From positions 15,506,816-15,570,815 of the forward strand of contig OZ316895.1 of the NCBI GenBank assembly GCA_973895155.1: a DNA stretch of 64,000 bases. Reading direction: 5' to 3'. Positions within the stretch are counted from its first letter, which is position 1. The number at the start of each line of letters is the position of its first letter. This stretch comes from Marsupella aquatica (taxonomy: Eukaryota > Plantae > Marchantiophyta). The notes under the pieces were generated by a model. That model had not been told where the DNA came from. It saw nothing but the letters and a program-made list of their open reading frames with translations, and ran no database searches. The position numbers were made by a program, and so were the translations under genes. Below, piece after piece: positions 13,524 to 52,784 of the stretch.

Positions 13524-14536
13524 GGTCAATTGCAAGCTTGAGGGGGGCAAAAGGACGCAAAAAGGATCACCAAAATGGAGAGGTAGTCCTTGTGGTGATA
13601 CGAAGATCAACGATCAAGATTGAAGGATAGTGGGGCCACCAAGGACTTCAACCCCGTGAAGGAATTAATGACGCAAAAGGATATTGCATCATTTCTAGCC
13701 ACTAAGGTCCTTCCACGGAGAAGAAGGAGGGGACCAGTTCCGTCATTCCCGCAGTTTGAAATCGCCGCCAAGTTTGAAATAGCCGCGCGGCTTCCGTGCC
13801 ATCCGCGGGTTTCCATCAATGGTGAGGAATTGGCCGCTGGGGCCTGCTGTGCCTTAGATTTCCAGATGTTTGAGAGGCTTCGGGGATACTCAACGACAGT
13901 GGCGGGGGGAGTGAACGCCGAGTAGTGTCGCAAAGTAGTTTGTTTGGGAGGCTTAGGGGATAATTGTCAATGACAGTGGTGGCGAGACTGAACGAGACTG
14001 AACGTCGCAAAGTAGTGGATGTCGGCAGTAAACGTCGACAATGAACGTTGAGGAGTTCCGCCAAATGTTTCAATTTTAGTGCTTGAAGAAAACATAGCAT
14101 TGCGGACTCTCTATTCTTTCAAATCTTTTCTAAGGTGGTGCGGTTTGGTGACATTGGTTTAGAGCTCGGGTAAGCAAATGTTGCTTTGTTGCAGTTTCAA
14201 CCAATTCTAGACAGACCTTCATATTCCTCACAGTCGCAATGCGTTCGGCGATAGGTGCTTGTAAACTCAAGAACTTTCAAATCAACGATGGTGCAAATGT
14301 TGCATACATGGTCTTTGACATGTTGTGGGCATGGAGAGTTTGCGTAGGTTTGGGTGGAAGTGCTACTTCATGAGCGTGACGTGCTCCGCAGGCCAGACTG
14401 AGGGTACGCTTGTAACTTTGATACCTAATGCACCACCTATTCTACTTCCTTTCATCGATATTTGACGTAACCTTCTCTACTTTAGATTTACCAGAACTCT
14501 CATCAGATTTAGTCAGGACTTTTCGTAGTTGTTTTG

Positions 14537-17134
14537 ATGGATACCCCACTTCCATTGCCCGTTGATGGAGGTGAGGGTGTAGGGTCATTAGAAAACTCTC
14601 CTCAAGAACGCTCAACCGGGTCTGTGTTAGTCAACAAACTCTCTAAAGGAAAACCCAGTTCAGACGATTGTGGTGCTTGAGCGGTAGCATCTATTGAGAA
14701 ATCTAAAGGTAGAGTCAAGCCAACTTCAGAGGCGACACACAACGAATGGGATCCAGCCGGGTCTGTGTTAGTCAAACTCTCTAAAGGAAAACCCAGTTTA
14801 GATGATTGTGTTGCTCGAGCGGTAGCATCTATTGAGAAATCTAAAGGTAGAGTGAAGCCAGCTTCAGAGGCGACAAACAACGAATGGGATCCAGCCGATT
14901 TTTACAAGGATGCTCACTTCTTTGCTACCCAGTTTGGCCTTCCGAATGAAGGCAAAAATCTCCATAGAATCATTGACATCAGTGAGGAAATGCTAGTCAC
15001 GTGCTTTGGAGATAAGGGACGGAGCGATTACAAACTAGGTAGTTGCACAGGCTTGCCACAAGAGGATGTCTTACATTTATCCCAAGTTGTCGATGGATAT
15101 GAGAAGCCGGTGAATGGAGTGTTGGCACATACATTTGTTAAGGGAGTGTATGCTAAGCGAGTGTTGGGGAGGACAGTTAATTGGGCCGCATACGCTGCAT
15201 CTAAGTTGAAAGGCCAGATTGTTCAGTGGCATAGAGAAGGCAAAGGTAAGCCTAATGGGCCCCCTTGTGTAAGGAAGACTGGTCGTGTCTATAAGCGCGC
15301 AGATACACAAGTTATTGAGGATGCAATTCATGAGGCAGTTCCTCCCCGAGTTCCTTCAGGCCTCTCTTTGAAAGAGCCAACGATGAAGTCTCCAATCCCC
15401 GAGAGCGGATGGGATGTTCTTTCCCTCGAAAAAGTTCCTGCTGAGCTACTTGGTACTGCATCTGCCTCCCCTATTCCGTGGGTGCGGCCAAGTCCTTCCA
15501 CTCTTGCGCAGTCGCCAAGTACCCCCCCCTCGTGCCTTGTTACTATCCATGCTTGAATCAGAAATGTCATGGAGTAAGAACCAAGTAAGAGAGGCCCGCG
15601 AAGATGTTCAGAAACTTCTTCGAAGCCTGGAAAATTTAAAATCTTCAGAGTGCGACCGGCGAAGTGCACTGCAGCGGATTCATCATCAAATTTGCAAACT
15701 AGAGGAGGAGCTGAAGCTTGTAAAGGATTCAATATCAAATGAAGAAGAGAAGCATGAAGAAACCACGAATGCCATTGAGTTGGAAGAAGGCAACCAATGT
15801 GAAGACGATGAGGTTTCACTTTGATCAATTTCCACATTAGTTTTTATCACACTTTCTATTTATTCTCTTCACTAACGTTGGAAATCTGAGATTAGTAGCT
15901 TGCAGCTAATATGATTTGTGAGTTGATGAATGACACTCTGTTTTTTATTCTTTGTGACAGACCCCCAACGATTACTTGACACACCTTCAGATTGATCTGA
16001 AGCAGCATGAGGCCACAATTGAGATGTTGAACTCCCGGTCAAGATCAATTTCAGATGAGTTGACTGTGTTGAGGATGCTCCACACCGACAAAGATCATAT
16101 GTTCAAAGACTTGCCAAGCAAGGTGGCAAGATTGACCAAAGTCGTGGAAGAAAGGGAGATTGTCGTTAAGGGGGTGGAGGAGCTTCTGGAAGCTCAATCT
16201 CAGGAACATTCCATTTTAAACAAAGTTTTGAAGCATCCTTGCCCTGTGTTAGCTCCTCGTTTTATTCCTACTTCTTGTCGATCTGTAGGAGTCCAAGCTT
16301 CACTTAATGTTTGTCCAGTGTGTTGCAATGGGTTTCATTGCTTCAACTGGATTCCAGCATCTTGTGGGCACACCTACCATCCGAGTTGTCTATTTCCAAT
16401 ACTCGGTTCATCAGAACAGAGTGCTAAGTGTTTGGCATGCTCCTATGCCTTCAGTGATGATTGGTTGCAAAGTTGGGGTTTGCCAAGTTCATATGCATCA
16501 CCAAGTCCGGTTGAATCACGGCATTCTTACATAACAGACTTAAAAGATATGTATGGGAAGAAGGGCAGATGTTTGGGAAGATGAAGAGAGGTTTCGCGGA
16601 TAGTTCAAACAGCTCAATCACAGGTTTGAATTTGTAAAGCAATCTTATGAATTATTTGTGCCTGCACATCTCTTTATAGTTTGTAGACACATTTTTGCCT
16701 GTTATGTTTGCACCCGTATGATTTTGTCAACTACTGTAATTATTCGGTGATTGTATTTTCAGGGGGATTCTCACGGCCAAGCTCTCATGTATTTGAGCAC
16801 CATATAGACCACTTCCATCATTGATATAGGCGATGATGAGCCTGAGGACGGATCCTCTAAGATACCTTTGGTGACACCAAAAGTAGAGGGTGGGGAGTCG
16901 GGAAAGAAACGAAAGGTTGAACAGGAATCAGCTAGGAAGGTGAACTGTAGCCAAACGTTGTCGAGTCCAGATACAATGCCTTTTTCCCCTGAGTGTGGCG
17001 TTCATGTCAACTATAAGCGTTTGGTGTTGGTGAAGACACCTCTTGGATTCTTGAGTCAAGCACTTGGCGGAAACTCACCTACTGTGACTATTCCCGCTCA
17101 TTCCTCCCAAAGGAAACTTCCTATGGATGATTGA
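14537..17134 (+). pseudogene. Multi-exon coiled-coil + RING-finger protein (Sola2 cargo); 3' end approximate
   Basis: ATG 14537; ~141-bp tandem duplication at 14617-14900; frameshift in a C-run near 15525; intron ~15813-15960; RING CPVC...CGHTYHPSC...CLAC in 15976-16584. Confidence 0.75.
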
Positions 17135-17436
17135 CTTTCAAGTTATGATCCAGGAAAAATCATTGCCCTCTCCAATGTAAATTGTGCATCTGCAGTTTGT
17201 AGTGAGGAGAGCTATGGTGACAATTGTTAGAAGATGCATTCAAGAAAGGTTTGCTTTAACTCAGTTTTTGTTTTGTGCAGCAAACTCGTGCACAGCGGGG
17301 CCGAAAGTCCTAGTATTGAGCTCTGTGTAAGTTCCTTTTTGGATTCTCTCCATAGCTTATGTTCATTGCTCTGTATTGATTTGCACTACTTGTAGGTCGT
17401 GGAGTCAGTAACTCCAAGTCCTTGTGTCAAGACACT

Positions 17437-17840
17437 TCAGGACTCTTTGAGTTGGGGGTCACGGTCCTCATGTCAGGAATTGTGGTCCTTGTGTGAGGAC
17501 TCCGGGTCCTTGATTCAGGACTCGGGGTCCTTGAGTCAGGAATTGTGGTCCTTGTGTGAGGACTCCGGGTCCTTGATTCAGGACTCGGGGTCCTTGAGTC
17601 AGGAATTGTGGTCCTTGTGTGAGGCTCCGGGTCCTTGAGTCAGAACTCTGGGTCCTTGAGTCAGGACTCGGGGTCCTTGAGTCAAGACTCCGGTCCTCGC
17701 GGTTCTTTAGTCAGGACTCCGGTCCTGACTCAAGGACTCCGGTCCTTTAGTCAGGACTACGGGTAACTGATGATCAGTATTGTCTTCTAGTCAAGACTGG
17801 GGGTCCTTTAGTCAGGACTTGAGGTGCTTGAGTCAGGGTG
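17437..17840. repeat. Tandem array of ~21-bp GAGTCAGGACTCGGGGTCCTT units
   Basis: Directly visible; quasi-palindromic AGGAC...GTCCT core. Confidence 0.9.
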
Positions 17841-17931
17841 TTGGATTGAGATCCTCTTTAGTTTGCAAGAGAAACCATCCGGTGACCAATAGTTGATATG
17901 TAACCCTTCATATATTATCTTTGTGCAGATC

Positions 17932-18183
17932 ATGGACAATCTTGAGGACAAGTTCACCACCCTGGTGGATATCAAAATTGACCACATGTGGGGAGTTTGT
18001 GCTGGGTCATTTGTTTATGAAGGCTGCAATGTTTTGTTGAGTGATGGTAAGCCATGCACTTTGGGCAAGAATGCCCGCAGGCTGAGAAAATTGAACCCTC
18101 AGTCTCCCGTGGGTCCTCGTTCTCGAGGACGATCCGAACATGTCTGCTGCAGTGTTGGAACTGGCAGTTTTATGTACTGCTTT
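17932..18183 (+). pseudogene. RPA70 C-terminal OB-fold/Zn-ribbon-like gene, 5' part (split by CACTA-1)
   Basis: FVYEGC...C...CC...YCF| continues in frame after the TTT TSD at 28284. Confidence 0.65.
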
Positions 18184-19015
18184 CACTACTACACTATTGG
18201 CCCCTTTTGCGAACCCATACACATCGCAAGCAACAAAGGCCCGATAAATAGAATTCTGACACTTGCGAACTAACACGCATCGCTACACCATCCCAAATTG
18301 TGAAGTTAAAACCTTCGCACGCGGACCATCGCAACGCCATCGCAACACCATGACAATTTCCTAACCGAATTCCCTCGCAACTTGTCAAACACTTGCGAGT
18401 TCAAAATCGTTGCAGATGCTTCGCATTATGCCGCACGGTCCTTTGTTATTGACGTTGGTTTTTGTGAAGCTGGAAGGTTCGCTACGTGTTTGTGATGGGA
18501 ATGAGTTTGATATTTGCGATGTCGTGGGGTTGGCAACTAGCGAGCCTTATAAGATCACTCTTATGCGAAATGAATTTGGTGGGGACTTCCGATCTAAATT
18601 GGATCGGAACTTGTGAGTTGGTTTAGGCCAGAAGTTGTGAACCGTTTGACTTCGCAACTTGTGATGTTACTTGGTTCTATAATAGCGATCCGAGTCATTT
18701 CAGTATTTCCTAGTTATCCAAGTTTGCAATGGGTTCACACTTTCATGGGAACACGACTTTCAATCAATGTTTTGCGAGGGATTTCTCTTGGCAGTGGACC
18801 CAATGTGGAAGGCAAATGTTTTTTATAAGATCCATGCAAGTATATAGGTGGATATACCAAAATGTTAGGGCTTGTTAAGGAACCCAATACACAAGAGGGG
18901 TGGCATATCTGATGCCAAGTCACCCTACTCAACATATGCTATCCTAGCTAAGCTCCAACACGGCTAGTCAGTGACATGTATCTCATGAGCCCGGTCATGA
19001 GATTCTACAAGCTAA

Positions 19016-21062
19016 CTAAAATGGACTCTTCCGACCCCGCTTTGTCGACTTCTTTGCCGGCTTCTTGCCCTTATCCTTCTGTGGATGTACAGCCTGGTGC
19101 TGACGGGTGCGCGGTGCCTTTCGGCGCTGCTGCTCCTCCTGCTCCTCCTCCTCCTCCTCCTGCCCATCCTCCTCCTCGTCACCTCGCTCCTGCTCCCCCT
19201 CATCATCAACCTGTCTTGATGATGCACGACTACTACCACTACCGCGATGGGATGAACCTACCTCCCGGCTACTGCCCCTCTCCCTAGAACCACTGGTAAG
19301 AGGAGTACCCCCTCATCCTCATCATCACTACTACTTGCGTCAGCACCTGACCCCTCAGGCTCATCCGAATCCTGCATCCGTACACTTAATCAGTTTCTAC
19401 AAATTAAAAAGGGTCATCCACAATGTTGGCATCACAATTAATTAAACCTTGAACACCTAGATACTTACAGTAGCCAACTCGGCATCCACCATCTGAAAGA
19501 GGTACTTTCTCCCATGCTCCATCCCTATCTCAATATGTTTCTTGGATATCTTCCTCTTATATTTCCGGTACTGCCATGCACCATAAAACCAAAAAGTAAA
19601 CCCATAGGCTAAACCAAAATTCACAATGCGAGAGGCCTTAGGCCTAGAAAAGTTTTGAAAACAACTCAAATTCACATTTGCGAAGCTAATGCGGTCACAA
19701 AATGCGAAGCCCTAATGTTTGCGAAGGCATTGCGATGGCTTTTGCGATGCACATACCTTCGCAACAGCATCAGAAAGTCCAAAAAGAAAAAAGTGCATAA
19801 TAGAGTTTGCGAGGCTCTTGCGAACGGATACGCATCGCAATGGGATCGCAAACTGTGATCTCGAGAGGTTTTAAAAAATGCGCAAATTTCTAAGTGTCAG
19901 TCGTGACCTAAAACAATGCACAAGCAAGCACATGAGAGCATGGACATTCATGACATTCCATTCACTTGCATTACCTCAACTGAGAAAGTAAGGAGGAAAG
20001 AGCTTAGGGAGGAGAGGAGACACTCACAAAGTGGGCCTTGAGACCTAGGAGCCCGCCTTGACCTAGCTTGTGGACTGGATTGGGGGTGGCTTTCACTCGC
20101 TTGGCTGCATCCATGAAATGTTTGGGTGGTCTTCCTTCTTCGTCGACCACCTTTTGCACATCAGCTACCTTCTGCTCGAGTCCCTTCAGGTCATGGTCAA
20201 GGGGGAGCTTCCCGGTCTCCTTTGCTTTCAGGGATCGAGCTAGTGTATCCTTCCATTGTTCCAACTCGCGAGCTGCTTTGATTTGCACCTCAATCTTGTA
20301 AAATGCATTCCAGATGTCCTCAGTGAATTGGAGGGGCCTGCGCAAATTCCTGTACGATCTCAAGTCTCTCAGGTGGGCTCTAATCTTCATCCTATCATGG
20401 TATCTCATTTGAGACATGGAATTAGAAATCTTGTCTGCCAGCCATTGCTCATCTATGTCAGCTCCATTACGAAATGCATCCTTGATCTGATTCATCACTC
20501 TCTTTCGCTCTGCCTTCTCAACCTTTCCCCATTGCATGCCTCGTGAGAAATTGCTTGTGATGATCTGTTTGATGGTGCTCTTAGCCCCTACATAGGCTAG
20601 CTCAGTTGGAGTCCCAGTTGTCTCCAAGGCAATGAATGGAAGCTTTTTCCTTGCATCCTCTTTCTGACGTTGCTCATCTCGTTGTTTTCGAATTGCATCC
20701 CTCTCCTCTCTTCTCTTCTGTTTTTCTATGGCTTGAGGAGAGGCAACTCCCGACTTAGCCCTCTCCTCCCTCTTCCTTCTTTTCTCTCTAGCCTTCTCCT
20801 CAGCTGCGACCCTCTCTTCCTCGTCTCTAGTAGCTTGCCCTGCCACAATTCCTGTTTGCAAAACCTGGCCTAAAATGGCACTCAAGGAGGCAAGCCCTGC
20901 TGGAGTATTCAAATTTACTTCACCCAACTGTGCAGCACTGAGATGTTGGGCTACTAAGTCGCTCCATGCATTCTGTTGCTTCTCCTGATTTGCCCCATTG
21001 CCACTACCACCAGCACCATGTCCTCCACTCCCACCGTGCTCTCCACTCCCACCGGTAGCCAT
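19016..21062 (-). pseudogene. TnpA/ORF2-like accessory protein of CACTA-1
   Basis: Predicted exons 21062-20028, 19570-19469 and ~19372-19016 (acidic/basic tail, probable 1-nt deletion in a G-run). Coiled coil and VHKLGQGG motif reminiscent of the Ptta/En-Spm Transposase_24 domain. Confidence 0.6.
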
Positions 21063-21529
21063 AGCTCAATCCCTCTCAGGTCTCTCTCGATCTTCTCCCC
21101 GCGGCCCCTTCTCCTCTCGCTCTCCCGATCAAACAAGGAATGAGCTTGATGCAAGCTCCCGCCGACACTTATGCATTTCAAAAAAACCTCTTTGCGATCA
21201 CATTTGCATCACAAACTGCCACCCTATTACCTTCGCAAACGGTCTCGCAACTTGCGATACTTTTGTGAAGAAAATACCCTTGCTAATCCATCGCAACCCG
21301 CAGAAACGCCCAAAAATTGTTCTCGGCCTCTGTATTTGCGAAGATGTTGCGAACCCGGGAGATTCGCAAAATGCATCTCTAATTTGTGAAGCAATTTGCG
21401 AGGCAGGTGATCTCGGTTTAGGGTGGGAAACTATCCCAGGTGTTTAAACGGCTTTACAAGGGTATGGCCTATTTAAACCCTTTTAACTCAACATGGATTT
21501 GTGAATGGCCAATTAGTTTGAAGAAGAGG

Positions 21530-22450
21530 ATTTTAGGTTGTAGTTGGGCTTTGTGTTTTTGTTTTTGAATCTTAATTGGGTTCTAATTTAACAAAGGGTT
21601 TGAGTTTTAATTTGGGGTTTGGATTTAGAAAGGGTTTAGTTTAGGGAGGGTTGTGTTTCAATTGAAGGGGTTAATTTGGGTTTAGGTTTTAATGTAAGGG
21701 TTGGGTTTGACTTTTCACTGATTTCATATTTTTTGCTCTATACATATTTCAGTTTAGGGACATGGTTTTAATAGAGGGCTTTAAGTTAGGGTCTAAGGTA
21801 GGGGTTTGGGTAAGGTTGTAATTGAGAAGTTTGGGTTAGGGTTTAGGGTAGGGGCTTGATTTTGGTTTAAGTTTAGGGGTTTGGGTTAGGGTTTAGGGTA
21901 GGGGCTTGATTTTGGTTTAAGTTTAGGGGTTTGGGTTAGGTTTAGGGTAGGGGCTTGATTTTGGTTTAAGTTTAGGGGTTTGGGTTAGGTTTTAAGTATA
22001 AAGGTTGGGTTCCATTTTAATTATAAGTTGTGTTTCATTTTTAATTGAGGGGTTTGGTTTAGGATTTTTGGGTAAGGGTTTGATACGTAATGAGGGAATA
22101 TGGATAGGTAACTTAGGATGGAGTTTGAGTTAGGGTTTAAGGTAGGGGTTTGAGTAAGGTTTTAGCTGAGGGGTTTGGGTTAGGTATTGAATATAGGGGA
22201 TCGATGGGTTCAATTATAATTCAAGCTTGTGTTTAATTTTTAATTTAGGGATTTGGGTTAGGGTTTAGGGTAAAGGCTTCATAGGTAATGAGGGAGTTTG
22301 GGTTATGGTTTCAGATGGGGTTTGAGTTAGGTTTTAGCTGAGGGATTTGGGTTAGGGTTTGAATGTAGCAGTTGGGTTTTTAGCGGAGGGGTTTTGGTTA
22401 GCTAGGGCTTTGGGTAAGGGTTTTATATGTTCATGTTTAGGGTAGGTTTT
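21530..22450 (+). repeat. Degenerate plant telomere-like (TTTAGGG) tract inside CACTA-1
   Basis: Many TTAGGG/TTTAGGG/TTTGGG units, including a ~50-bp unit repeated three times at ~21829-21990. Confidence 0.85.
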
Positions 22451-22886
22451 TTTTCTAATTGAGGGTATGCTTTCTTTATTTCATTAACATGAAGGGGTGG
22501 AACACTCTAGGAGTTACAGGGCACTTCCCCATCATTTTGAGAGTTTTGGCTAATGCATATGCATTGCGAGAGCTCAGGCATCTGAAAGGTAAAGCTTGTT
22601 TTCCTGGCATTTTTTATTTTTACTGTAACTTGAGGGTCTATCATCCCTTTCTATAGTTTACCATAAGTCATTGCTTAATTCATTGTATATTTGCAGATTT
22701 CTCCCTCCTACTTCCAGATTGGGTTCATCAAGTTTGGACCAAAAGACCTATAGGCATTGCTGAGCCCGGGTCTCATAAAGGTATTTTTTCCTTTCATTTC
22801 AGTTTAATATGTCTACTTAGGGATTACAAATGATCGTTTTAGCTATTTGTTTACTAACTCGCTATTCCAAATCTTCCACTTGCCAG

Positions 22887-24036
22887 ATGTCTTCATCCTC
22901 TACAACTTCCACCACATCAGACTCCTCTGATGAGGACATAGATCCTCCTCCTCAGCCTGAAACAGTCGCTCGTCGACCTAGTGGTCCACCACGCCAACTT
23001 TGCAGTTGTAAAAAATGTGTGGGGATGGTTGTCCAGAAGTCATATGTATGTGCAGACCATATTTCTCGATATGGACAACATCGAGGTCTTACACCCGGAG
23101 CCTCTTCATCCCATACGGTGAGTTGTAAACTTACTATGGTTTATTTTTTATTCAATAAATATTGCTAGCATGATAAGTTGGGGAAGTTTACAATCACTTT
23201 GTTGGATTTGTTCCCTATAGGTATCTAATAGGCCTACACCCACGGCACCAGCACCCTATATTCCCTCACAAGGAGTTCTAGATGCTATAGGCTCGGCCCT
23301 TTCACAAGCTTTCCGTTTAGTTGCAGCAGAGCGAAGTGGTGTTGGGACAGTTCAGGGTGATGGTATTGTTACACGAGGGAAAAAACGGTCTAAAAGGCAA
23401 CCTAGAGGGGAAGTTGATCAGTACACCTGTAGGGTTGATGGTAGGTGGGGACCTTGTACATTCACAGGGAAATGTGTTCCTATCATAAAGGATTGGAATC
23501 CTGATTGCCTTGGTTTGCCATGTGATATAACCTATGGTGAGGAATTAGAGGTTTGGGGAAGACATTGGATTGTCAAAAGTTCTACACTAGGGGAGAGACA
23601 TGGGTATGGAATTTTTTCTTGCCAGGACATCATTGTGGATGATATGGGTGGAAAAGGGCGCTCTCAAGATGGACCAACGTTGTTCCCATATGGTGGACCC
23701 ATTTACAAGCGAAGACATTGGAACATGCTCCTTGTACAACACCCTGAGTGGAAGACTTATGCATTGGACATGGATACTTTTGATGGTTGCACTAGGAAGT
23801 ATAGTGAACAACATATAATTGATGGTGATCCCATCCGTAGTGGAAATATAGCCGGTTTCATTAACAGTACTGTGGGGACCCGGCCTAAGCGTAGGAAAAA
23901 CTGTGAATGGGTTTTTGTTGATGGTCCCCCTCCAGCACCATATGGGCAGAGATATCATCATGACCATTGTCTAGTTGTAGCTACTAGGACCATCAAGGCC
24001 GGAGAGGAGTTGTTTACACATTATGAGTGGGATTAG
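22887..24036 (+). CDS. Zn-domain-SET (lysine methyltransferase fold) protein, exons 22887-23117 + 23221-24036, ~348 aa
   Basis: Phase-0 donor ACG|GTGAGT; acceptor CCCTATAG|GTA; open frame. SET motifs VKSS..HGYGIFS, IIDGD..GNIAGFINS, NC, LVVATRTIKAGEELFTHY. Confidence 0.8.
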
Positions 24037-27000
24037 GCTTATTTTAGGGACATGTATTATTTATATGTTCCTTCATGCTTTGTGAACAAATATTTTATAA
24101 GTTAGGGTTTACACCCTAAACCTATGATGTTCTTTCACATTGTATGTTAATAATATGTGTCGATATTGTTTTTGTCTTATGAGGGATTTAATTTGGAGTT
24201 TGATTGTGAATGCTTTATTGTATTGTCCATAGAATGTGCGACCTAGTCAAGATATGTTGCCAAGGAGGTTGAGAGCTACATATGAAGAAATGGGCATGCC
24301 ACAAGACGGAGTCACATCATCAACAGATTCTTCATCCAATGACAGTGACAATGAGGGTTTGGATGAAGGGGCACCTAGGACAGATTTTGAGGTCATGCAG
24401 GACCAGGAGACAGCCATGGATGACTTCATGACAGATTGGTTTGGTGTGGACGCCCGTGTGGACGTTGATGGTGAAGGACGTGGACCACCCAATGAAGGAG
24501 CTCCTCCACCAAATGCTGCACATGACCCCCGACCTCAACATACACCAGAAGGTCAACAACAATGGGAAGAAGCGGAGGCACATGCTAGAACACCTATTTA
24601 TGGTGGTGCTCGTTTGAATAGACTCTCTGCCATCTTGGCATTGATGAATCTTCAGGCAAAACACAAGGCAAGCAATGCCCTTCTATCGGATTTGTTTGCA
24701 ATTTGCCATGACCTCATGTTACCTAGTGACAATGTATTGCCAGGAACTTGGAAGGAGGCAAAGAGAGTTCTATCATCCATTGGTATGGAATATCATATCA
24801 TTCATGCTTGTGTGAATGACTGCATCCTATATCATGAGACCAATGCCAACATAACTGAGTGTCCAATTTGTCATGAGCCTCGATATGACAACAACATGTT
24901 GACGGAAAAGGTGCCCAGGAAAGTTGTCCGTTGGTTTCCCATTATTCCTCGATTGTTGCATATGGATCGATGTTCTGACTTGGCAGAATTGATGGTATGG
25001 CATAAGACACATCAATCAGAGGCCGGTGTCATGCGGTTGCCAGTTGACTCCCCTACTCACAAGCATGTGGAGGCACAATGGCCAGAGTTTGCACATGACC
25101 CTCGTCATGTGAGGTTGGGGTTGGCATCGGATGGGATCAGCCCACACTCCCTTGGTGAAAAAGGACGCCCAACATCAGTTTGGCCGGTGATTGTTATGAA
25201 TTACAATCTTCCACCATGGTTGTCCATGGAAAAGGGCTTCTTGTTGCTATCATTGATTATCCCAGGTCCATCTAAGGTAAAAAACATAGACACCTATTTG
25301 GCACTATTGGTTGGGGAACTCCAAAAATTATGGGACGGTGTGTGGGCCTATATGGTCAAAAAACTACAGGGAGATTATCACGTGTCTTCAAATTGAAGGG
25401 AATCAATATGTGGACCATGCATGACTATCCTGGTAAGGGGTATGGATTGGTGTTTTTTTTATGTATTATAGAGTTTGTTTTAAAAGAAGTCCCTCATATT
25501 TATGTATGTACATGAACTTTTTAAATCCTTTGACTCTAATTGAGAAAGTTATTTTGGTTTGGGTTTGTTGTAGGGTTTGGGTTTGTTTCAGGGTTACAAA
25601 CTCAAGGGTATAAGGCATGCTCCACTTGTGGTCCAAGCCTTGAAGATATGGCCAAGTACTCAAGATGGCTTCGCAAGATAATCTACCTTGGGCATACCAA
25701 GTTTCTTCCACTTGGACATGAGATGAGGTCTGACCCCCTTCTATTTTCAGACTTTGACATGATCAATGATGATGAGCGTGACATACCTGAGCGTACATCC
25801 TTTGCACATTGGAAATCCATAGCTGATAGGGTGGCAGACCCTAACGACCCCATGACATTTGATGGAAGTGGGTTGACGAGGTGGAGTATACTAGCCACAT
25901 TGCCGTATTGGCTAGAGTTGAAGATTCATCATTTGTTAGACCCCATGCATATAGAGGGAAACGTTGGGAAGGCTTTGATCAAGCATTTTTATGGAGAAAA
26001 GGACCATAATTTTAGGGAGGCATGCCAGGATCTAGAACGACATCCAGATGTATGGATAACAGTTGATGCATCAACAGGGATGGAACACCGTCCTTCAGTT
26101 CCTTGGGTTTTGAGTGTTGGTGAAAGAAGAGAGTTTCGACAACGCATAGGTCAGATGCGGTTTCCTACAGGCTATGGCGCCAATCTTCGGAAAGCTTTTG
26201 GTATGGAGGACAGTCATAAGTGGCCAATGTATTTGAAGACACATGACTATCACCGTTTACTACAACATATACTTCCTGTGGCAATCATAGGCTTGGGCAG
26301 TGAAGAAGTGCAAGACGCCCTATGGTCATTGGGCACTTTGTTGAGATGGATATGCTCAAAGGAAATATATGAAGAAGAGATCCCACGGATCGAGGTATTG
26401 GCAGCAGAGGTAGTGTGCAAGTTAGAGAAGGCCCTCCCTCCTTCCTTCTTTGATTGTCAAGTACGTACATTTACTTGTTCATCTTGTGAGGGAGGTTGCC
26501 ATTGCTAGTCCAGTGCATTGTCGTTGGATGTATTGGTTGGAAAGGTATATGGCTGTGTTAAAGGCTTATGTACGGAATCGTGCACGAGTGGAGGGGAGCA
26601 TGGCAACAGGATACTTGACAGCTGAGAGTATGTTCTATTGCAGCAACATCTTAGCTATCATTGATCCTAGTTGTCCACGCAGTTGGATGGAAGAGAGAGA
26701 AATGGAGGAGGATCGTTTAACACGAGCCAAAAAAACACGCTTACTGACCGGAGTGGAGTTGACACAGATGACTACTTTCATGTTGAGTAATAGTACTATG
26801 ATGGAAGAATGGAGAGAGTTTTATGAGGATGCAAAGAGGGAGAGTCGTCGTCCAAGGATTTTTCCAAAGTTCCTTGAGTATATGAGGGAGAAAGTACTTC
26901 AGTTGGATGCTATGGTGGCCCAAGGTGAGAGTGTATCACATTTTCCAGATATGACTCCTGAGGTTCAAACAATTGTTCATGGCCCTTTGAGACTTGTTCA

Positions 27001-35691: not shown

Positions 35692-35847
35692 CCTACTGGA
35701 CCACAAAAACATGTCATCTATGGTCACCCCGTATAACACAATGCAACCACAATCACCAGGCATCCATCCATACATCTGTGTTGCTTCAGAATTACTTTAT
35801 TACACATCCTTCCCCTCACTAATGTCCATGCAAACAATTCACATTAC

Positions 35848-40885: not shown

Positions 40886-41477
40886 GTACACACACTCTAC
40901 GTGATGACAGTGAATTTTGGAAGAATGGGTTCACCTGACAATGCAAGGACAACAAAATTCCTGCTTTTTGAGTTGATCTGGCCCACTGGTGCTCAGGTCC
41001 GATTTTGATAGGTACAAGGGATATGTGAACAATACGTACTAGGCACCTGCACGGATGCAGGACATTGTTTGAATATATACTACAAAATCCATATCCGTGG
41101 TGAAATGAAGTGCAACCAACTTGTCATGGCACATACATATTTTGTTGTAAAGGAGGATACATTCAATGACAAACTTATAGGGCAATTTGATTAATTGCAT
41201 GCCTGATAATTTATACGCTTACAACTTAGAAGTCCTGTTTTAATTTAGCAGTCTGATGAAAGTGTTTATGAAAATGACCACTCAGCCTAAATACTTCCAA
41301 GAAGGCTTGTAAGGATAAGTTTGTATAGGCATGTACCCAGCCACTGACGCCAGAGCACAAGATAAGTGCTGCCTATATAAACTCGCCTACCCAACTCCTT
41401 TTCAAAATTGGAATCTCTGCAATCTCAAAAAATAGTACATCCACATCAGGTGCACTGTGCATGTACAATGTTCAGCT

Positions 41478-42158: not shown

Positions 42159-42856
42159 GCCTGCGCATGAGATAGACTCTACAATTTAGCAGACTGCACA
42201 GAAAGTAAAATATATTTAGCATTTAAGGTACAAAGGCATTTGCTACTGCAATGAATTGGAATGGCCACACAAGGATGCAGAGCACACATACTTTTGGTAT
42301 GTTGAGCCCACACACAAAACTGATCCCCTAATACAATTTCTCCACCAACACCTCAATTTTAATTGTGGCTATGATTCACCAAAGGAGATCTGCAACAACA
42401 TTTCATGCATTTGAATCACATACAATAGTCGTGACATGTAAAACAGGCATTCTTCGAAGAGGATTGGTATGAAGCAGTGTCATAAGGGTTGAAATTTATA
42501 CATCCTAAATAGGTTATGATAGTGGCTGAGACAAATAAGTGAGGCATAAATCATTTTGCATATTATCACATGGCCCATTAATTCATTCAACGTTGCAATG
42601 TTCACCAGGTTAAAGCAGTCATGAAAGCAGTCTTTCAATAGAGACTTTTATGCGAGTTTGCTAGCCTCTTAAATTAGGATATTTTGCTTAGTGCAGGCAT
42701 AATAGGATATAAGTTATGTACTGTTGACCCTAAACCCTGGACCCAAAATTGCTCATACATCAAAATTTTAAGTAAATATCCTCTGTGTTGAAGTCAGAGT
42801 GTTAAGCTATAGGTCAATGGTATCTGGTCTGTGCATGCGGTGTGACAAGTGGTCCT

Positions 42857-43306
42857 CTAGAGCATGTGATCCAAACATGTGTAGACACCAAAGTCACCGG
42901 TGGTGGGGTCTGGGAGGGCAGGACAAGTGACATCACCAGGCACACTGCAGGATGGCGAGTGGTTCCAGATGATACATTGTGCTCTGTGCAAAAATCGGCA
43001 TCCAAGAGAACGGTCATCCAATTCTGGGCCAGAAGCCCTACAGGCAGGACAGTCATATTGGCAACTGTGTACACACCCTTGGCACCTAATTTGTGGCGGG
43101 TCATGTACAAGAGACACAAATACCAAGGATGTCGGGAAGGGTACTGAAGCAGGTAGAGGCCGGCTGTAGTTGTTCCTGGAAACAACAGGGTACTCAAAGT
43201 ACCATGCAGACTGGGCTGGAAGGATCCCAAGTCTGACATACTCAAGGCGCAACATCTCTGCCTTGCGTGCAAGTCGCACATGTTCAGCGTTGCGGGTCCT
43301 CACCAT
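42857..43306 (-). CDS. Cys/His-rich orphan protein, 149 aa
   Basis: ATG-initiated open ORF collinear with the other cargo ORFs; CQGC..SC..DCPAC, C..LH..C, HSPSC, TC..H. Confidence 0.5.
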   Translation of the reverse strand: MVRTRNAEHVRLARKAEMLRLEYVRLGILPAQSAWYFEYPVVSRNNYSRPLPASVPFPTSLVFVSLVHDPPQIRCQGCVHSCQYDCPACRASGPELDDRSLGCRFLHRAQCIIWNHSPSCSVPGDVTCPALPDPTTGDFGVYTCLDHML

Positions 43307-44314
43307 AAGTGTTGCTTTCGTTGTGATGTCCTCTGTTCACGTCCTTTGATGAGCAAGGTGAGCAGGAGGTCGACTTGCCTCGCCAACAGCAACCACCTAA
43401 ACTAATCAGTTCCCACTCATTGTCTTGGTTCCAACTACAGGTCATAGTATACACATAGCATGAAACATGCATAGTACATATTTGATTCTGAGTTTATGAG
43501 TTTCCTAAGACAAAGAGCTTGGTGATAAACCCATATTCTCGACGGACATGTATATCAATCATATTAAACTCCTGTTTTTTCATCCAGAAAGACCGAAAGT
43601 CTCACCTTGCAGGTTGCAGCAGAGAGAAAATTCACTGGTTGTCGTGTTGTGCAAGTGAACCTCCACTGATGCCCCGGTGTAGCCCCTCAGATGCAGGTGA
43701 CACTTACCAACTCCCAAGTTGCCTGGTCTAACAGAAAATGCTTATATCTTCAGAACTTTATAGAGCAAGTACATGATCACATACTTCTGGATCTATTCAT
43801 ATTTGGAACTCTTGCCAACTACAACTCCCATTATGCACAAGCTCACATCAACAGAGAAAGATACAGAATGCATACTTACTATGGCTCTAAGCACCTTCAC
43901 TACCTTGTTGAACCCAGTCCTGAAGTCTTTTCAGCGTGTTTGTTGTGTTGTCTCCTTTGGCACCCAACACCTTAGTCCTTGATGTAACAGAATGCGATTT
44001 TACAAGTTAGATGCTTTGGAACCTTCTATGGTCTTAGCTGAATTGATGTCATCGTAAGTGGTGAAAGACAAGGAAGACGAAAGCTGGTTGAAGAGCTGTG
44101 GACAACACACTAGCATGAAGTGCTTCAACCAATCCACTGCCAAACGGAACTCTTGCACAGTCACATTCTTTTAGTAAACAAAAACTCAGTCAAACTTCAG
44201 AATCAAAGTACAGACTCTGAAGGACCAAAGGAGGATGTTGTGAGTTTCTCTGTTGTTTAATGTGTTACCCTTCTAGTTTCAAAGTTAGCAAATGCTGAAT
44301 AATGTGTCTACCAG

Positions 44315-44657
44315 ATCTTCGAAAAGAAGCCCACCACAATTAAGAACTTCGGTATCTGGGTCCACGTATCAGAGTCATACAGGTTATCACAACATGTACA
44401 AGGAATATTGTGATACCACAAGAAACGGAGCTGCAGAGCAGATGTATGATGAGATGGCTTCTTGTCATAGAGTTCGGTTCCCTTGCATCCAGATCATGAA
44501 GACTACGACAGTCCCTGTCTCTCTGTGCAAGCGAGAAAGTACCAAGCAGTTCCATGATTCAAAGATCAAGTTCCCCTTGACGTACTGCAAGATTCAACCT
44601 CCATTGCGAAAGCTAAAGAAGACTTACAAGGCCACCAAGCCCAACACAATTGTTTGA
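44315..44657 (+). pseudogene. RPL18a: Captured last exon of 60S ribosomal protein L18a (eL20)
   Basis: CCAG|[15 protein letters not shown] (frameshift) [14 protein letters not shown]...[10 protein letters not shown]...[17 protein letters not shown]...KTYKATKPN. Confidence 0.93.
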
Positions 44658-47600
44658 GTAGTGCGGGTGCAGGTTCCCAATTTTGAGACAATTTGGCTCA
44701 TTTTATGTCCCGAGGGAATCCTGGAGTTTATGTATTGAGTTTCTAGGTGAAGATGCTTAATATAAGGAAATTCAATTATCACTTCGTTCCCAACTTCTAT
44801 TAATTGAAAATACACAAGCTGGAAGCAAGAAGACAAGCCACAATCTAGCATCTTAGCCAAACACAATCGTCCCGACAAAGCAAAACTCAGCTGGACAGAA
44901 GTCACTCGGATCCACAAAAAATTGAAGATTCACCTCCAAGCCGGAGGCTGATCACTTCAGTACAACAACTTCTAGACGGAACAAACTTTGCTCAGCCCCA
45001 CAGAAACACAAATGTTAAGGCTCCAAGTCAGAGCTCACAAACAAAAACTCAGATAAATAACATTCAAAATCTGTCCAGGTTTGTGCAAAGTGTACATATT
45101 CATTCTTCTGGAATGAACACGCAATGCATACATCACCTAGACACAATCATTATAAATCATTGGGCGATTGGGGACCACTAAGCAGGTGTGTTCCTATTTC
45201 GAGGCTACAGGAAAGGATAGAGTGACACCAAACTCAAGAGTACACCAAAAGAAAAACAGCAAGAACCAAAGTCAATCATGTGTGGATAAACTGCACATGG
45301 GAAGTTCCCCTGAAGAAGCATCAGTTGCTAACATTGTCACCCGAACCACACCTAGTTTATGACCTCAATGTCTTCAACCTCAATATCCAATCCTCAGCCC
45401 CCTGGTGCTTCCGTGTTTGTTCTGAAAATTTCTGTGATGAAATAATTATTCAATACATTCAATAGGAGTTCAGACAATCTGAAGAGGACTTTGGACTTGA
45501 ATGGGGGACAGCGTGGCCATATAGTTATCCTTGTGGCCTTCAGCTACGTGTCTCACGCTGAATTTCACTTTCCAGTTTCGAGAGTTGTGAAGGTCTAGTT
45601 TTAGTAACTTCCTCCTGACTCGACTTGGGAGCATTCTCTGTATTTGCTAGCTTGTAGTTAGCTTTGACTCCTTTCAGCTTAGTTGACGACCCTCTTGAGA
45701 TATTAACAATTAATATCAAAGGCATTGAAACAAAGCGGGTGGCAGTTTCAGTATCTCAGGCAATGCAAAATTAATCCATACTTAATCAGCCCTGGCCACA
45801 CATTCCTTCAAAGCCCCTCATACTAGCAAGCAGGTCTGGCCTGTGAATCTTGTAGTGCTTAACGATACAAAGCCTTCCCAAGTACCAATTCAAAAGTAGC
45901 AGAAATAGATCGAAAGCTAGTTCCGATGATAGCTCCCAAAAGCTTTCCTCAGCCCGATTCCTATGCACATCAGAGGAGCTCAAACCATTTAGAAATGAGA
46001 TCACAGATTACTCTTGACAATCTCAAAAATGCCACAACCTAAGCACTGACAGCTCCGTCCCCCCATTCTAATTTCTCCGACAAGTTTGCCTTAAAGCACA
46101 TCCACTCGCAGTTCAAGCAGATTCAGAATCATCATAGACAATAGAGTGTTCTACCATAGCCCACGGTAGGTCCACGGCCATCGTAACAAACGCTCCACCC
46201 CCGGGGCTTATTAGTATTGCTCACTTTTAAGAAGGGCAGTTTTCGCAAAAGCAGTCTAATTGCCTAGACTGCACTAGAAAAGTTGGAGGCAATATCACAG
46301 CGGAGCATTCTGCGTCTAAGGGAGAGCGACGCCGTTCAGGAGATAGATGCGCGAGAGAGTGAAGATGGTGGGGAGCGGAAGACGGGTTGGGACTGGACCC
46401 TTGGTGCCGGTGGGTAATATGTGGGGTTTCAATGAACAATGGGCCAGTTTGAGGAGGATTAAGAAGCGCGCACCCCACGTTCTTGTGTGGTGGTTGGGTG
46501 GGGTTTTGTTTGATAGAAGAAGAAATCACCATTCTCTTATGGAAGAAAGAAAATCACAGGAAACAGTGGGCGGGAGAACAAGGCATGTAATAGAGAACAA
46601 CGAGGCATGTAATAGAGTACTTGCGGTTACTCTAACGGTGCACGAACACTCACCTTTGTCTTCCGCTTTGTCTGCTGTGGCCAACAAATCCCAGAGCGCT
46701 GCCGAGCTTGGTGGTTGCTTGATGGTTGAAAGTGCGTAGCTCACGTCCCTACCTCAATGTCCAACTCAATGTGGGATGCAGCAGCTTCTCTTGGTCGCAT
46801 CTCCTCTTCGTCGCATCTCCTCTTGGTTGCATCTCCTCCTTGTCGCAGCTCCTCTTGGGGTTCACAGCTAGCGCGCAGCAGCGCTCGATGGTTGACAATG
46901 CGCAGCTGAGCTAGGAGAAGAACTGAATGACTGTGGCTGCTCTTCTCTGCAGTCCAAGCACCCGGCTGGCAGAATGCTACGACACCTTAAAGAAGCGCAC
47001 TTTCAGCTGCATGGCCGGGACTAGTAGAAACCGTTGACGGTGAAGGGCATTCTCAGTTTGGACCTCCTCTCTCCAACCCCTTCTAACCCGCACCTCCAAA
47101 GTTGATTCGGGAGTTGATTAGCAATAACGTCGCTCCTATGCCAAAGGCACCAAGAACCAAGCCAAAAGAAAGGGTTTAGCAAAGGGAGAGCGATGTAGTG
47201 TGCACTGATCAATGACTCAAAGTTGACGTCGAACCCTCCATTGCACTAGCTATTGGCGGTTGCCACACAGAGAGCAGCCGTATGTAGCAAACTGTAATGC
47301 AGATACTCCCGTCAAAGGTCGATGCGTCACACTCAGCTTTAGAGGAAGGATAAACGATTGAGCAGCATTGCATTGTGCAAAAATGTTGGAGAAGCACATT
47401 GCTTCCAGGCCCGAGCTCACCTCCTTCCCCTTTCACCACTTCGCAGCTCCTCCAAGAGACATTCACTCAAGGGCACATCATGCAGTTGCTTGCCCTCCTC
47501 AGAAGCTCAACACCACAGCCACCAAAGTTGTCAGCTCCCACTGCAACTGAACAGGTCACTACCAAAAGCCCGCTCCCACCGCAGCTGAACAAGTGAGCGA

Positions 47601-49206
47601 CACAAGAGTGTAGGACCTCCGCCAAGCCCAGGGCAGCAGCTCAATGAAACTCAATTTGCAACTCGTCTCACTCTCGCTCTTGCTGCAAAGAAAAAAAGTG
47701 CAGGTCAAACTCCTTTGTGGCCTCAGTCCCCACCGCTTTCCCCAAGCTATGGACAACTACTAGCAACTTGCGCTCACAACATGACATCCAGGTCTTTAGC
47801 CAACTGCACACTGGAAACCGAGAGAAGTGAGCGCAGTCACGCAAGGCCAAAAAAGACCAAAGTTGAGCCAAAGCAAAACTTTACTAATGTATTTACAGTC
47901 AAGCATGAGGGCAATCAGGTAAGCAGAAGACCACGCATTCCCGCAAAGAGTTGTAGGTTCTCGTCACTTCCTCGCCTCTGTATAGAAGGTCGATCGTTGT
48001 ATCTCGGGTACCCAATGATAGTGGAGATGAATGCAAATAGGCCTCACCAATCGCCAGTCATCCGCGATAAACCTCCCGACAACCTTTGTAAACTCTGGAC
48101 CCAGCCTCAACCTCACTCAGCACAGTAGCAAAACCTAGCAATGTCACCGCTGCAATGTTTTGTGCTTGCAATAAGCAGCCTCCTAAACCCACAGCTCCTT
48201 CCACTGCCAACAAAATGCCAATGACTCAACCCTCATTCCAACCCCGAGCTCCCAATAGTAGTGAGAATCCAAGCCTTTGACTGCAAGCGCACAGCGGAGA
48301 CAAGACACTCAAAGAAGCTCGATAGGATTCACTCAGGAAACCTAGGGCCCAAGCCTGACGATGTTCGGCTCTTCCTTCTCGCTCGCCAAATGCCGACACT
48401 CTGTGCTCGCGAAGGCACTCGTCGTTTCTCCCAAGGGTTTTGGCACAAGGGGTTTGGGAAAAACAGTCAATGGGCAAAGGCATTACCATGTAACACGTGG
48501 AAACTTGTGGCATGGTCCATTAGGTGAAGGGGTTCATGAAGCCAATTGAGGGCAACACGCATTACAAGGAAGAGTAGGTAGAAGTGGTCTTGCGGCAAAG
48601 GCATTGCATTGTACCCTTAACAAAAAGAGTCCCTAATATTGGGCTGTTCAATATTCCTAGATGAAGGGAGTTGCAACCATTTGAAATTGGCCAAGGGGTA
48701 TATTTGGAGACAGAATGCTGCCAAATGATGTTAGTGGGTTCAGTGTGTGTCTTTCTCTTTGTATGATGGAGTAACCAGTGGCCTGCATCATGGCGCGCGA
48801 CTTGCAATTGCACCGACCTCCGGTACATATACCTATAATCATTTTGTCAATCATACATATAAAGTATATATGTATGGGTTGGATTTGGGATGTGGGTCGG
48901 CATTATTATTTAATAAGAGCCAAAGTTATATTGTTCTTATATATGTGCAACCATGGTGATAAATATGGCAGAAAGCGCTATTATAATTGTGCTGAGTCAC
49001 TTATAAAACTTCAAAATAATTGCCTACACTAAGTTACAATTGCAACACTCCAAATAGTTATAGATATGCCTCTCCAAAAATTCACCAAAACTTAGTTGAG
49101 AAGGTGTAACAAAGATGACACCAATAACCTTGGAGTCACTAATTTCCAAAGGTCTCAAGTAAGTCATGTAAGGGAGGGTCTCAGATAGGGCCGGTTTCTT
49201 CTAGTG

Positions 49207-52033
49207 CATCCTGGGATTGCATCACAGTCCCATTTCTTGTGCCGATTCACAGCTGTAGCACCTATTTCCCAAAACAATCGCCTCACAAGCAAAACATCAC
49301 CATACTCTCTCTCAATACCAATGGCAAACTTCTCCTTGCAAAATGCAACTACATCATGAGCATTTTCCAAGCGAAAGCCATGTGTCCCCTTCAATTGCTC
49401 TCTCTGTATCCCGCTCTTGATGTGGCCTCCAAGGGCATCCTATCCATGCAGAAAAAGTCCATTCAATGTCACACAAGCATACAACTAGACTCCAAAGAAT
49501 AATGTTCTTGTATAACAGTAAAGAAGCTCATATGAAACTAAATAATGAGAACAACACAGTGAATTCAAATATTGGAGGTAGAGTTCCACACTTACAGCTA
49601 CACCCTTTCCATGTCCTGAAGCATGGAAAAACCATTTCATCCGTGCACCAAATCTCTTGTAATACCTTGAGACGTAGTAGAAAGGTCAACAAGCCTTAAA
49701 TTGTGAGGCAGCTCCATCGGACCAAACCCAATGCTGAGTGAATTCAATTCCCTCTTGCTTCATCCAATGATAATGAGCATCCATGCAATGCTGCACAAAC
49801 AAGGTGTTGTGAGTATTATCATCACTGATATAGAAATGATAGTCGGCGATGATATCTCTGTCACCAGCTTCACTCTGTGCCATACTCACTGTCCATCCCA
49901 TTGCAGCCTCCATAGATTGGTGCACATCTTCTCGATGTCTATAGGTCACATGGATCAACAAAGTAATCTGTTTGTTGTCCCAATGTTGCGATTGAATCTC
50001 ATTTTGCGTCTTGAAAGTGTAATTTTCAGAGAAGTCAATTGAAGACACTATGGTTCCTCTTGGGAACGTCTTCAAAAACAATCTAAACTGGTCACTTTGC
50101 CAGCGAGCTCTAAAATCATGAACAACACATGACTTCATTCTAGCTTCGACCACGTTCCTGAAATCACTTACAGACGTAGTCTTATACACCATCCTCAAGC
50201 GTTTAGACTTTTTTTGTGAACTCTCATCACTTCCCTGCTTCTTTGCTTTCTTCATTTTGTAAGTTGTCATCTAACTCCTGATATTCAAAACTCTGCCAAC
50301 TAATAGTTAGTTGTTGTGTGGAATCCAACTCCCATGGACACCAGTCCAGATTCAGCATTCCACAATCTACACAAACTCCCATAATACAGTCCTTCTTGTG
50401 CCATACCTGCCCCTCGGTTTTCTTACACAGGGCACCTTCCATCCAACCTCGAACAGAGGTAATGTGTGTCCTTGAAGCTACACAAGAAACACCTAATGGA
50501 ATGGCCACTGATTTACAAGTACAACACTGACAACTACACTCAAAGGGGTGATAAAACTTCCTGAATTTGTTTAGTGCGTCTTTCAGGAGGTCCATTTCAA
50601 CGTGCTGCTTGCAGCAGCATACATTTCGATCCTTCATGGTTCGAATGTAAAACGGTTTCAGATAACTGAAGGACCGCAGGCCTATAGAAACATCATTGTT
50701 CTCAGCCTTGCACCAATCTTGGAACTTGAAGAAAAATTCAACCTGTAAATAGACATCAACAGGGTGTTAATAGATTACCCAAATTCAGGCTCTCAAATTT
50801 GTATCGTTGGCTACAACTGAAGACGGGACTAAAGAATGCAGAAAATTTTAAGAACTCTCAAAGAAATTGAAGTAGCCAATGTGAGGATATCCTACCTCTG
50901 TATCCTCGAGCCAATGTACTTTATGTTCCTCATGTTGATTTGGTCCAAGTCGCTTTCTAGCTATCTCTTTCTTGCCTGGTGAGATTCTAGTGTATGTGCT
51001 CCAAAATAGTTCAACAATCTTGCGCACCTCTGCACTAATCTTGTCACTCCTGGTTTTCCTTTCCCCCATTGGGTATTTTATACATTGGTTCTCATCTATC
51101 TGCTTCCGCATGTTTGATGCTTTTTGAATGTTGTGTCTCTTGATACCAAAAGCCTTAGCTAAAGAGGACTGATATCGCTTGCCAACCGTGGACTGTCCGA
51201 CCATAGCTACCAACACTGAATGCTTTACAGCCAAGTGATCTTTCTTTTTACCCCACTTCACAATTTGCAAGGTCTGCCTAAGGTCAGTTATAGCAGCTCC
51301 TACAGATGCATCTAACTTAGGGGTCCCAAGAGCTGCAGGATGATATTCTCTCAATGAAGAATGCAACCAAAATCGCTCTAGGACTACCTTCCTTGCGGAT
51401 AAGTTGAAATCTCTCATTTTTTTGAATAAGACTGAAGTTACCTCGGAGACCACTGAATCAACCGCTCGTCTCGTTCTATTGGGCGTTTCCTCAGCAAGAT
51501 GACTAGACAATGAAACTTAAACTTCTCATCCTCCGAAGTCTCCAATATGCAGCTCATTTTCTAGCAGCATCTTTCTCCCTGAATTCTCTGGCCAAATGAG
51601 GGTCCTCTTGCATGCTTTGTGGACAGTGAGCTCCTTCACCTAATCGCACACGCAGTACTTCGAGGGCGGCTTGCTTTTGCCCTATCCTAGAGCGCAAACA
51701 TGACAATGTTTCTTTGCCTTCAGCACAGTCATTCTTGATGTTGTGCAGCTTCAACGCAGCTTGAGCGGTTGCCTCTCCATGTAAGCGCAGCGCCTCATTC
51801 CTAGCAGCAGTTAATAATACCTCACTTTGCTGCTGAGCATGAAAAATCAGGCCCGTACTATTGCCGTCTTCCGGTTGAATGCCTCTATTCAATTGCTCAG
51901 TGTTGACCTCTTGGCATTGCACGATAGGCTTGTCATACCATGACTTTTGCCTTCAAAAATTGCGCCATTCTCTTTTGTCTTTCTCTTCTTGGGATTCATC
52001 TTGGCGCCCCGCTTGGCGTCGCACTGGTGGCAT
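49207..52033 (-). pseudogene. Sola2-like transposase, N-terminal and catalytic part
   Basis: RKTRSDKI, Cys-rich CCCKQH...CIMGVCVDCG, SIDFSENY.FKTQNEIQSQHW, YISDD, WSDGAASQFK, ASGHGKG/DALGGHIK; several stops, frameshifts and introns. Confidence 0.88.
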
Positions 52034-52784
52034 CTCGCTAAAATTGATGGCAGCTCCTACAACACGTTGAGCCTTTGAACGTAAGTTCAAAACAATATTT
52101 CATAAGTTAAAGAGGCCATGGTCCAAGTTAAATGAGGCTCTAGATGGCAAAAATTCATGTGGGAACACCCGCACTCAAGCAAACAAAAAATGGAGTCTAA
52201 CAACATTGAGATGTCGCGCGGCTTACCCTTTACCAACGAGGTGAACACCCTACATTGCACAAGACGGTCGCCAAGCTTTTTGCTAGTTCTATGGATGATC
52301 TTTAGAATTTATCGAATCCGCTTGAGGCCAGAAGCTCTCTGGTAAAACTCCTGAAGAAAACCCGCAAAACATTACCGCAGATAGTCGACAGCCCTTCAAT
52401 TCCCATGGCTCCCTGCCTCTTCCGTAGAGTCCTAGCTGAGCCTAGCTAGGACTCCTTAGTCTACGCGTAATTAAGTATTTTGAAATTCAAATCGCTACTT
52501 AAGTCCTGTTTCATTGGTATTCATTACCACTTGGACTTCCTTTTAAGTCCTTTTGTCCTTAACCATTGAATCATTAATGGACGCTACTCCTAATCAAACC
52601 TCCTAGGACGCTTCCAAATGGACTGCTGGAGGTGAGGGGAAGATCCCACCTTCCATTCTCAATAAAGCAATCCAGGCCATTAGGTGTAACACCTTGTCCA
52701 TCTCTTGAACAAAGGGAAGGACTGGAATCCTTTTGGTGGAGATTTTGAATATCCTTTTTGCCCCCCTCAAGCTTGCATTTGACC

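Follow-up and report, generated by a model that had tools for sequence, protein, structure and literature searches.

The question raised by this locus is what kind of element interrupts a kinase-like open reading frame (ORF) in the liverwort Marsupella aquatica, and whether the genes found inside it belong to it. The stretch analysed, referred to here as the window, comprises 64,000 nucleotides of contig OZ316895.1 (positions 15,506,816 to 15,570,815 of the forward strand, assembly GCA_973895155.1), and coordinates are given within it. Positions 13524-52784 very probably represent a complete, now dead copy of a Sola2-type cut-and-paste transposon, which carries two genes that face each other and in which two CACTA elements are nested. 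The Sola2 group of the Sola superfamily was reportedly described by Bao, Jurka and Kapitonov in 2009. It is among the least studied groups of cut-and-paste transposons, and is mostly known from animals and amoebae.

The outer element has the termini GGTC...GACC and is bounded by terminal inverted repeats (TIRs), the left one beginning with GGTCAA (13524..13552, plus strand) and the right one finishing with TTGACC (52756..52784, minus strand). The two arms (pair I1, 97% complementary) match at 28 of 29 nt, with one mismatch, and constitute the longest of the 26 inverted pairs in the window; when one indel is allowed in an A-run, the match grows to about 32 nt, the length given in the original prediction. 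The predicted 4-bp target site duplication (TSD), AGGA, is present on both sides in identical copies (13520..13523 and 52785..52788); the fifth base is mismatched, and a 5-nt TSD does not fit. We calculate that chance would produce an inverted pair of 29 nt, with no more than one mismatch, about 6e-7 times per 64 kb; the identity of the 4-nt flanks contributes a further factor of 1/256. Excision of both CACTA elements, each with one copy of its TSD, leaves an outer element of 11,082 bp; this agrees with the size of about 11.08 kb expected beforehand, and both removals match joints found in independent contigs. The element is therefore complete and delimited, as had been proposed.

It could be argued that the inverted pair and its AGGA flanks arose by chance, or that they are the ends of two separate elements, given that a single copy was examined and no empty site, which would read ...GGTCAGGAGTATT..., was seen. 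This is very improbable. Besides the rank of the arms among the inverted pairs of the window and the identity of the flanking 4-mers, the flanking reading frame is continuous once the element is removed, both genes of the lineage sit exactly between the arms, and the read depth of sequencing run X1 is even, at about 100-230, over all three parts of the element outside the CACTA insertions. Two further observations concern the ends. A contig of X1 matches the window past the left TIR, as far as position 13567, and then continues into unlike sequence; it may belong to a related or internally deleted element with the same end. A candidate subterminal motif, GCAAAARGAT, has 25 matches against 13.5 expected and does not cluster at the ends, and it was dropped.

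The interrupted sequence, a host gene or an older repeat, is a kinase-like ORF (52789..53726, plus strand; Pfam PK_Tyr_Ser-Thr, E 9e-13), whose kinase domain, with the Gly-rich loop region, begins about 10 codons past the insertion site. No Pfam family was found for the ORF of the left flank. It had been claimed that removal of the element restores the kinase gene in frame. After excision of the element together with one copy of the TSD, the segments 13094-13523 and 52789-53726 do share one frame, but that frame contains a TAA at 13502-13504, 19 nt before the insertion site. Because of this stop and of the degenerate-looking kinase motifs, the target itself may already have been a pseudogene before the insertion.

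Both nested elements belong to the EnSpm/CACTA superfamily by their termini, their 3-bp TSDs, the domains of their proteins and exact empty sites in contigs. CACTA1 (18184..28280, plus strand; 10,097 bp) is inserted in an exon of the second gene, ORF2, bears CACTACTACA at both ends, and is flanked by TTT (18181-18183 and 28281-28283). CACTA2 (31131..49206, minus strand; 18,076 bp) is inserted in an exon of the transposase gene and has termini of the type CACTAGAAGAA[T/A]CCG: CACTAGAAGAATCC stands at 31131, an inverted copy with one mismatch closes at 49206, and CAT is found on both sides (31128-31130 and 49207-49209). Pfam recovers two sets of CACTA transposase domains (Transposase_21, DUF4218, DUF4216 and Transposase_24); the plus-strand set lies around 24.2-27.4 kb, the minus-strand set around 33.5-39.6 kb. 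Six public sequencing runs are listed for the locus, none of them an RNA run. In Logan contigs, a joint from 18180 to 28281 omits 10,100 bases (runs X1 and X3; two studies), and one from 31127 to 49207, for which one of the contigs measures 4,497 bp, omits 18,079 bases (runs X1, X2 and X3; two studies). The outer element therefore also occurs, as further copies or alleles, without both CACTA elements. The depth of the runs over the CACTA cores is far above that over the three parts of the outer element. Earlier guesses at the CACTA borders, 17384 and 31957..45857, were overruled by the contig joints and the TSDs.

The CACTA elements have contents of their own. CACTA1 contains a SET-domain fragment (23221-24033, plus strand; E 2.4e-7) just upstream of its transposase, and a 25-nt minisatellite (21646-22376) rich in telomere-like TTTAGGG units, to which a CCCTAAA-rich 23-nt array outside the outer element (11433-11996) is related. 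In CACTA2, ORFs with a BRCT domain and an NSD-type PHD finger, and a fragment of RPL18A (ribosomal protein L18A), are found especially at 40016-42185 and 44289-44654, and are likely captured pieces of host genes. The tail of CACTA2 (45-49.2 kb) has a depth 5-20 times below that of the core, as though only a sub-family possessed it.

What, then, mobilised the outer element? A spliced DDD transposase had been proposed, and it is indeed encoded on the minus strand, with its N-terminal and catalytic part at 49210..51997 and its C-terminal part at 30521..31130; the gene ends near 30521. The protein consists of an N-terminal coiled-coil and basic region, a Cys-rich cluster (CCCKQH, 50602-50619), a three-Asp core of the RNase H-like type and a C-terminal domain. 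The first Asp lies in DFSENY (50019-50036), the second in WSDGAAS (49704-49724) and the third in DALGGH (49422-49439), preceded by HGKGVA (49596-49613). Two predicted introns, both GT..AG, are located at about 50743-50895, after HWLEDTE, and at 49440-49595, where GTAAGT..AG separates HGKGVA from DALGGH. When the element without its nested insertions is aligned to the homologues P0029 and P0053, the frame runs uninterrupted across the CACTA2 site (WDCDAIPG|CRAMHCFDGF), which places this insertion in an exon.

Homologues of the transposase comprise 26 proteins of similar length and 32 longer ones, and the three catalytic Asp are invariant, or nearly so, across an alignment of homologues. The five that carry an organism name all come from liverworts (four from Calypogeia fissa and one from Riccia sorocarpa), with an identity of up to 64% over the queried exon. 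An alignment-based scan of metagenome contigs yielded 80 related loci, with a transposase 31-51% identical to that of the window and a DNA similarity to the element confined to coding blocks; a single-sequence scan of such contigs for relatives of the transposase found nothing.

The affinity of this enzyme to Sola2, which had been predicted, is supported by about ten colinear blocks, including both flanks of all three Asp, in a by-eye comparison with the published Sola2 transposase alignment (PMC3627910, Additional file 10). The Sola2 blocks SKF..RPK, NVCVC..HEN and C....C..C correspond in the window to RSFSYLKPF, NVCCCKQHVE and CIMGVCVDC, respectively. The block DF[AS]ENY[ST]F is represented by DFSENYTF and QDEIQS.HW by QNEIQSQHW; SDD..H follows as SDDNTH. 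The block [FW]SDGAASQFK is found as WSDGAASQFK, FF.TSHGKG..DG.GG as FFHASGHGKGVADALGG and PGT...H.F as PGCRAMHCF. A 4-bp TSD is a feature of Sola2 (PMC3627910), and the outer element has both such a TSD and TIRs. The Atlas clusters that come closest in a feature search are eukaryotic and unnamed; their commonest recorded phyla are Mollusca and Arthropoda, both animal phyla for which Sola2 is reported (PMC10294476).

The predicted fold points to a DDD enzyme with an additional C-terminal domain. An AlphaFold model was built for P0040, an uninterrupted homologue of 636 amino acids with about 31% identity to the window protein along its length (tblastn), from an alignment of 18 sequences (predicted local distance difference test, pLDDT, 73; predicted template modelling score, pTM, 0.64). 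In this model, D207 ends strand 1 (201-208), D292 comes right after strand 4 (286-291), and D365 opens the helix that follows strand 5 (362-379); the modelled Asp positions follow the RNase H-like order and occupy its canonical places. In VIA-align comparisons, residues 184-412 match retroviral integrase cores with Z 7.1-7.7, and also IstA, Mos1, Metnase, TnsB and Hermes, with a Z range of 6-7.7 for the core. The model supports, indirectly and with moderate confidence, a DDD triad in an RNase H-like fold. Residues 513-626 match the first bromo-adjacent homology (BAH) domain of DNMT1 (BAH1; Z 7.1, root-mean-square deviation 2.7 over 85 residues), as well as the BAH domains of EBS, ORC1, AIPP3 and ZMET2, and the match lists of the model are dominated by integrase-like and BAH domains. 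The corresponding BAH-like part of the window lies at about 30521-30880, with GDFYAVEA at 30845-30868.

Several results speak against placing this element in Sola2. No Pfam model matches the transposase. Foldseek returned nothing at E <= 0.001 with the P0040 model, the fold matches are middling on the tool's own scale (Z < 8), and the modelled protein is a homologue with 31% identity rather than the one encoded in the window. The assignment is a reading of a published alignment rather than a score or a tree. The TSD AGGA is not AT-rich, unlike those of dictyostelid Sola2 elements, and the termini, whose unusual character had been pointed out in the original prediction, differ from the GAA/GAG...TTC/CTC of dictyostelids (PMC3627910, Additional file 11), the sole Sola2 ends compared. 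Finally, TIRs with a 4-bp TSD were sought around 28 related metagenome loci, including L012 and L063-L065, and none were found, so that the ends and the TSD of the lineage rest on a single copy; the sole result of that search, a 14-nt inverted pair at L076, looks like chance.

From the differences in termini and TSD composition it might be concluded that another superfamily, or a sister group of Sola2 without a name, is the true home of the transposase, which would then share only a few motifs with Sola2; the Cys-rich N-terminal cluster also recalls enzymes of the KDZ/Zisupton type. Such an assignment appears improbable. About ten blocks, flanking each Asp on both sides, stand in the order of the published Sola2 alignment, and the TSD is 4 bp long. 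In addition, the phyla that prevail in the nearest Atlas clusters are phyla with reported Sola2 (PMC10294476). The reading of the outer element as Sola2 is preferred here.

The second question is the nature of the remaining coding sequence. Two convergent cargo genes had been proposed, and this does not hold: the minus-strand coding piece 30521-31130 is the C-terminus of the transposase, and what remains is one multi-exon gene on the plus strand, ORF2 (14681..18183 and 28284..28574). The exons of its 5' part lie within 14681-15553, 15958-16581, 16808-17131 and 17893-18183. The first holds a conserved N-domain (best match 14828-15451), the second a long coiled coil and a RING-H2 zinc finger (C3H2C3 type) of the form C-X2-C-X13-C-X-H-X2-H-X2-C-X13-C-X2-C (16312..16440). 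Once CACTA1 is removed, 17893-18183 and the last coding part, 28284-28574, form an open frame of 194 codons across the junction. The homologue P0068 (638 amino acids) matches, in order, 15035-15277 (70%), 15985-16623 and 28290-28496, the last with its residues 502-568. ORF2 faces the transposase gene, with an interval of about 1.9 kb separating their 3' ends. In this interval lie two tandem-repeat arrays with 28-nt and 31-nt units (29534..30147; families D9 and D8), and 21-nt tandem repeats (17437..17844; family D5) occupy a presumed ORF2 intron.

For the N-domain there are three close homologues and no Pfam family. Of the 85 representatives of the coiled-coil/RING part, 32 reach E <= 1e-10 and 12 also contain the N-domain. 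All eight RING-H2 ligands are invariant in the 18 aligned sequences. Pfam RING models match ORF2 only below their cut-offs (E 0.0077-0.12), and its tail shows a hint of Rep_fac-A_C (E 0.059). In the predicted model (pLDDT 64) the N-domain is helical, and the only other features are two long helices and a RING region of small size. The protein is possibly a ubiquitin ligase.

Is ORF2 a partner of the transposase, or cargo? Its family was sought at the 80 related metagenome loci, 22 of which extend at least 3.5 kb downstream of the transposase. It was matched at 11 of the 80, and in 10 of the 22 long loci it lies downstream of the transposase on the opposite strand. In the loci with a facing ORF2, the transposase is only 31-44% identical to that of the window. 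As the family recurs in this position in such distant relatives, ORF2 is probably a conserved partner gene of the transposase in this lineage, instead of one of the passenger genes of the original prediction. Against this, L063-L065 are near-copies of one sequence, which brings the independent facing cases to fewer than 10, and ORF2 was not matched at 12 of the 22 long loci. Both the latter count and the existence of Sola2 passengers elsewhere, such as Fanzor1 in dictyostelids (PMC3627910), would suit an ordinary cargo, captured on one occasion as all or part of a host gene and without a role in transposition, and many of the 85 representatives of the family are without known context. A single capture of this kind is nevertheless rather unlikely: the facing position is kept where the transposase has diverged to 31-44% identity, the spacing between transposase and ORF2 in L063-L065 equals that of the window, about 5.5 kb, and the domains of ORF2 are all in the same order in distant homologues.

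The copy in the window is unable to work, given that each of its genes has a CACTA element in an exon and in-frame stops. In the transposase there are at least four in-frame TGA codons, at 51554-51556, 49686-49688, 31007-31009 and 30617-30619, at three of which relatives have Arg, and there is an additional stop at 51953-51955. ORF2 has at least one in-frame TGA (16582-16584) in place of the Arg of its relatives. Contigs of X1 and X3 carry G at 30619 and read CGA (Arg) rather than TGA. The appearance of TGA at Arg positions would fit C-to-T decay at methylated CpG.

Taken together, we propose that the transposase of an active element would bind the inverted ends, excise the element and integrate it at a target cut with a 4-bp stagger. 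Guidance to chromatin with a certain histone mark might come from the BAH-like domain, and the coiled-coil RING-H2 protein encoded by ORF2 would likely act as the standing partner of the transposase. The history of the locus follows a clear sequence: the Sola2 element entered the kinase-like frame, and the two CACTA elements inserted later, one into each gene.

The element shares with the Sola2 group a DDD transposase, the order of its motifs, a 4-bp TSD, TIRs and a size of several kb (PMC3627910). It differs in its host, a plant with bryophyte-type relatives as opposed to animals or amoebozoans, in its GGTC..GACC termini and non-AT-rich TSD, in the introns of its transposase, and in two features that go unmentioned in the Sola2 texts compared: a conserved RING-H2 gene that faces the transposase, and the BAH-like domain at the C-terminus. 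The closest parallel in layout is provided by the dictyostelid Sola2-Fanzor elements DFa and PPa, which likewise combine a Sola2 transposase with an unrelated second gene within the TIRs, and have a 4-bp TSD (PMC3627910). Their second gene is a TnpB-like Fanzor1 that varies among sister families, whereas here it encodes a RING-H2 protein with a coiled coil, and distant relatives have it as well. Their TIRs measure 12-21 bp, compared with 29 bp here, and their TSDs are AT-rich (PMC3627910). In ferns, automatic annotation has assigned repeats to 'SOLA' in Azolla (PMC6786969) and Ceratopteris (PMC6890710). These have in common with the present element that they are Sola-class DNA transposons of non-seed land plants; they are repeat-masker labels, given without subgroup, gene content, ends or TSD.

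Other features of the window lie outside the element. A Copia-type long terminal repeat (LTR) retrotransposon on the minus strand (326-7027) has two LTRs of 346 bp (326-671 and 6682-7027; identity 98%) and carries ORFs for gag, integrase and RVT_2. Downstream of the kinase-like ORF there are a RING-H2 ORF (54915-55484, plus strand; zf-RING_2, E 1.3e-6) and a hAT transposase remnant (56442-58548, minus strand; Dimer_Tnp_hAT, DUF659). At 62812-63999 (plus strand), with 59373-59724 and 62353-62567, there is an ORF that the window end cuts off and that has two arrays of the palindrome GATAAATTTATC in front of it (9 matches against 0.26 expected). The ORF matches Pfam DUF7869 (E 1.8e-46), and with its DN..ENKN / GHTH..D pattern it resembles a further transposase of the DDE/DDD type.

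The papers searched yielded no Sola2 report for liverworts and no bryophyte branch with such a layout. The motif DFSENY was absent from them, as was, judged from the listing, any RING partner of Sola2. Sola2 is a known group; on the basis of the papers searched, outside Repbase and Dfam, its plant branch with a facing second gene seems to be undescribed. A broader proposal, which we put forward tentatively, is that bryophytes host an old and separate branch of Sola2, in which a transposase reading chromatin by means of its BAH-like domain is inherited together with a coiled-coil RING-H2 ubiquitin ligase needed for moving or for escaping silencing, and of which the window contains the first fully delimited copy, ends and TSD included.

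For the annotation of bryophyte repeats, a plant branch whose ends are defined and which combines a 4-bp TSD with a conserved second gene offers a concrete model, which could separate real Sola2 copies from the many annotated 'hypothetical proteins' in bryophyte genomes. The copy described here, though dead, is well delimited and instructive. A transposase with a domain that resembles a histone reader, accompanied by a RING protein, would make it possible to test how transposons choose their targets or cope with host chromatin.

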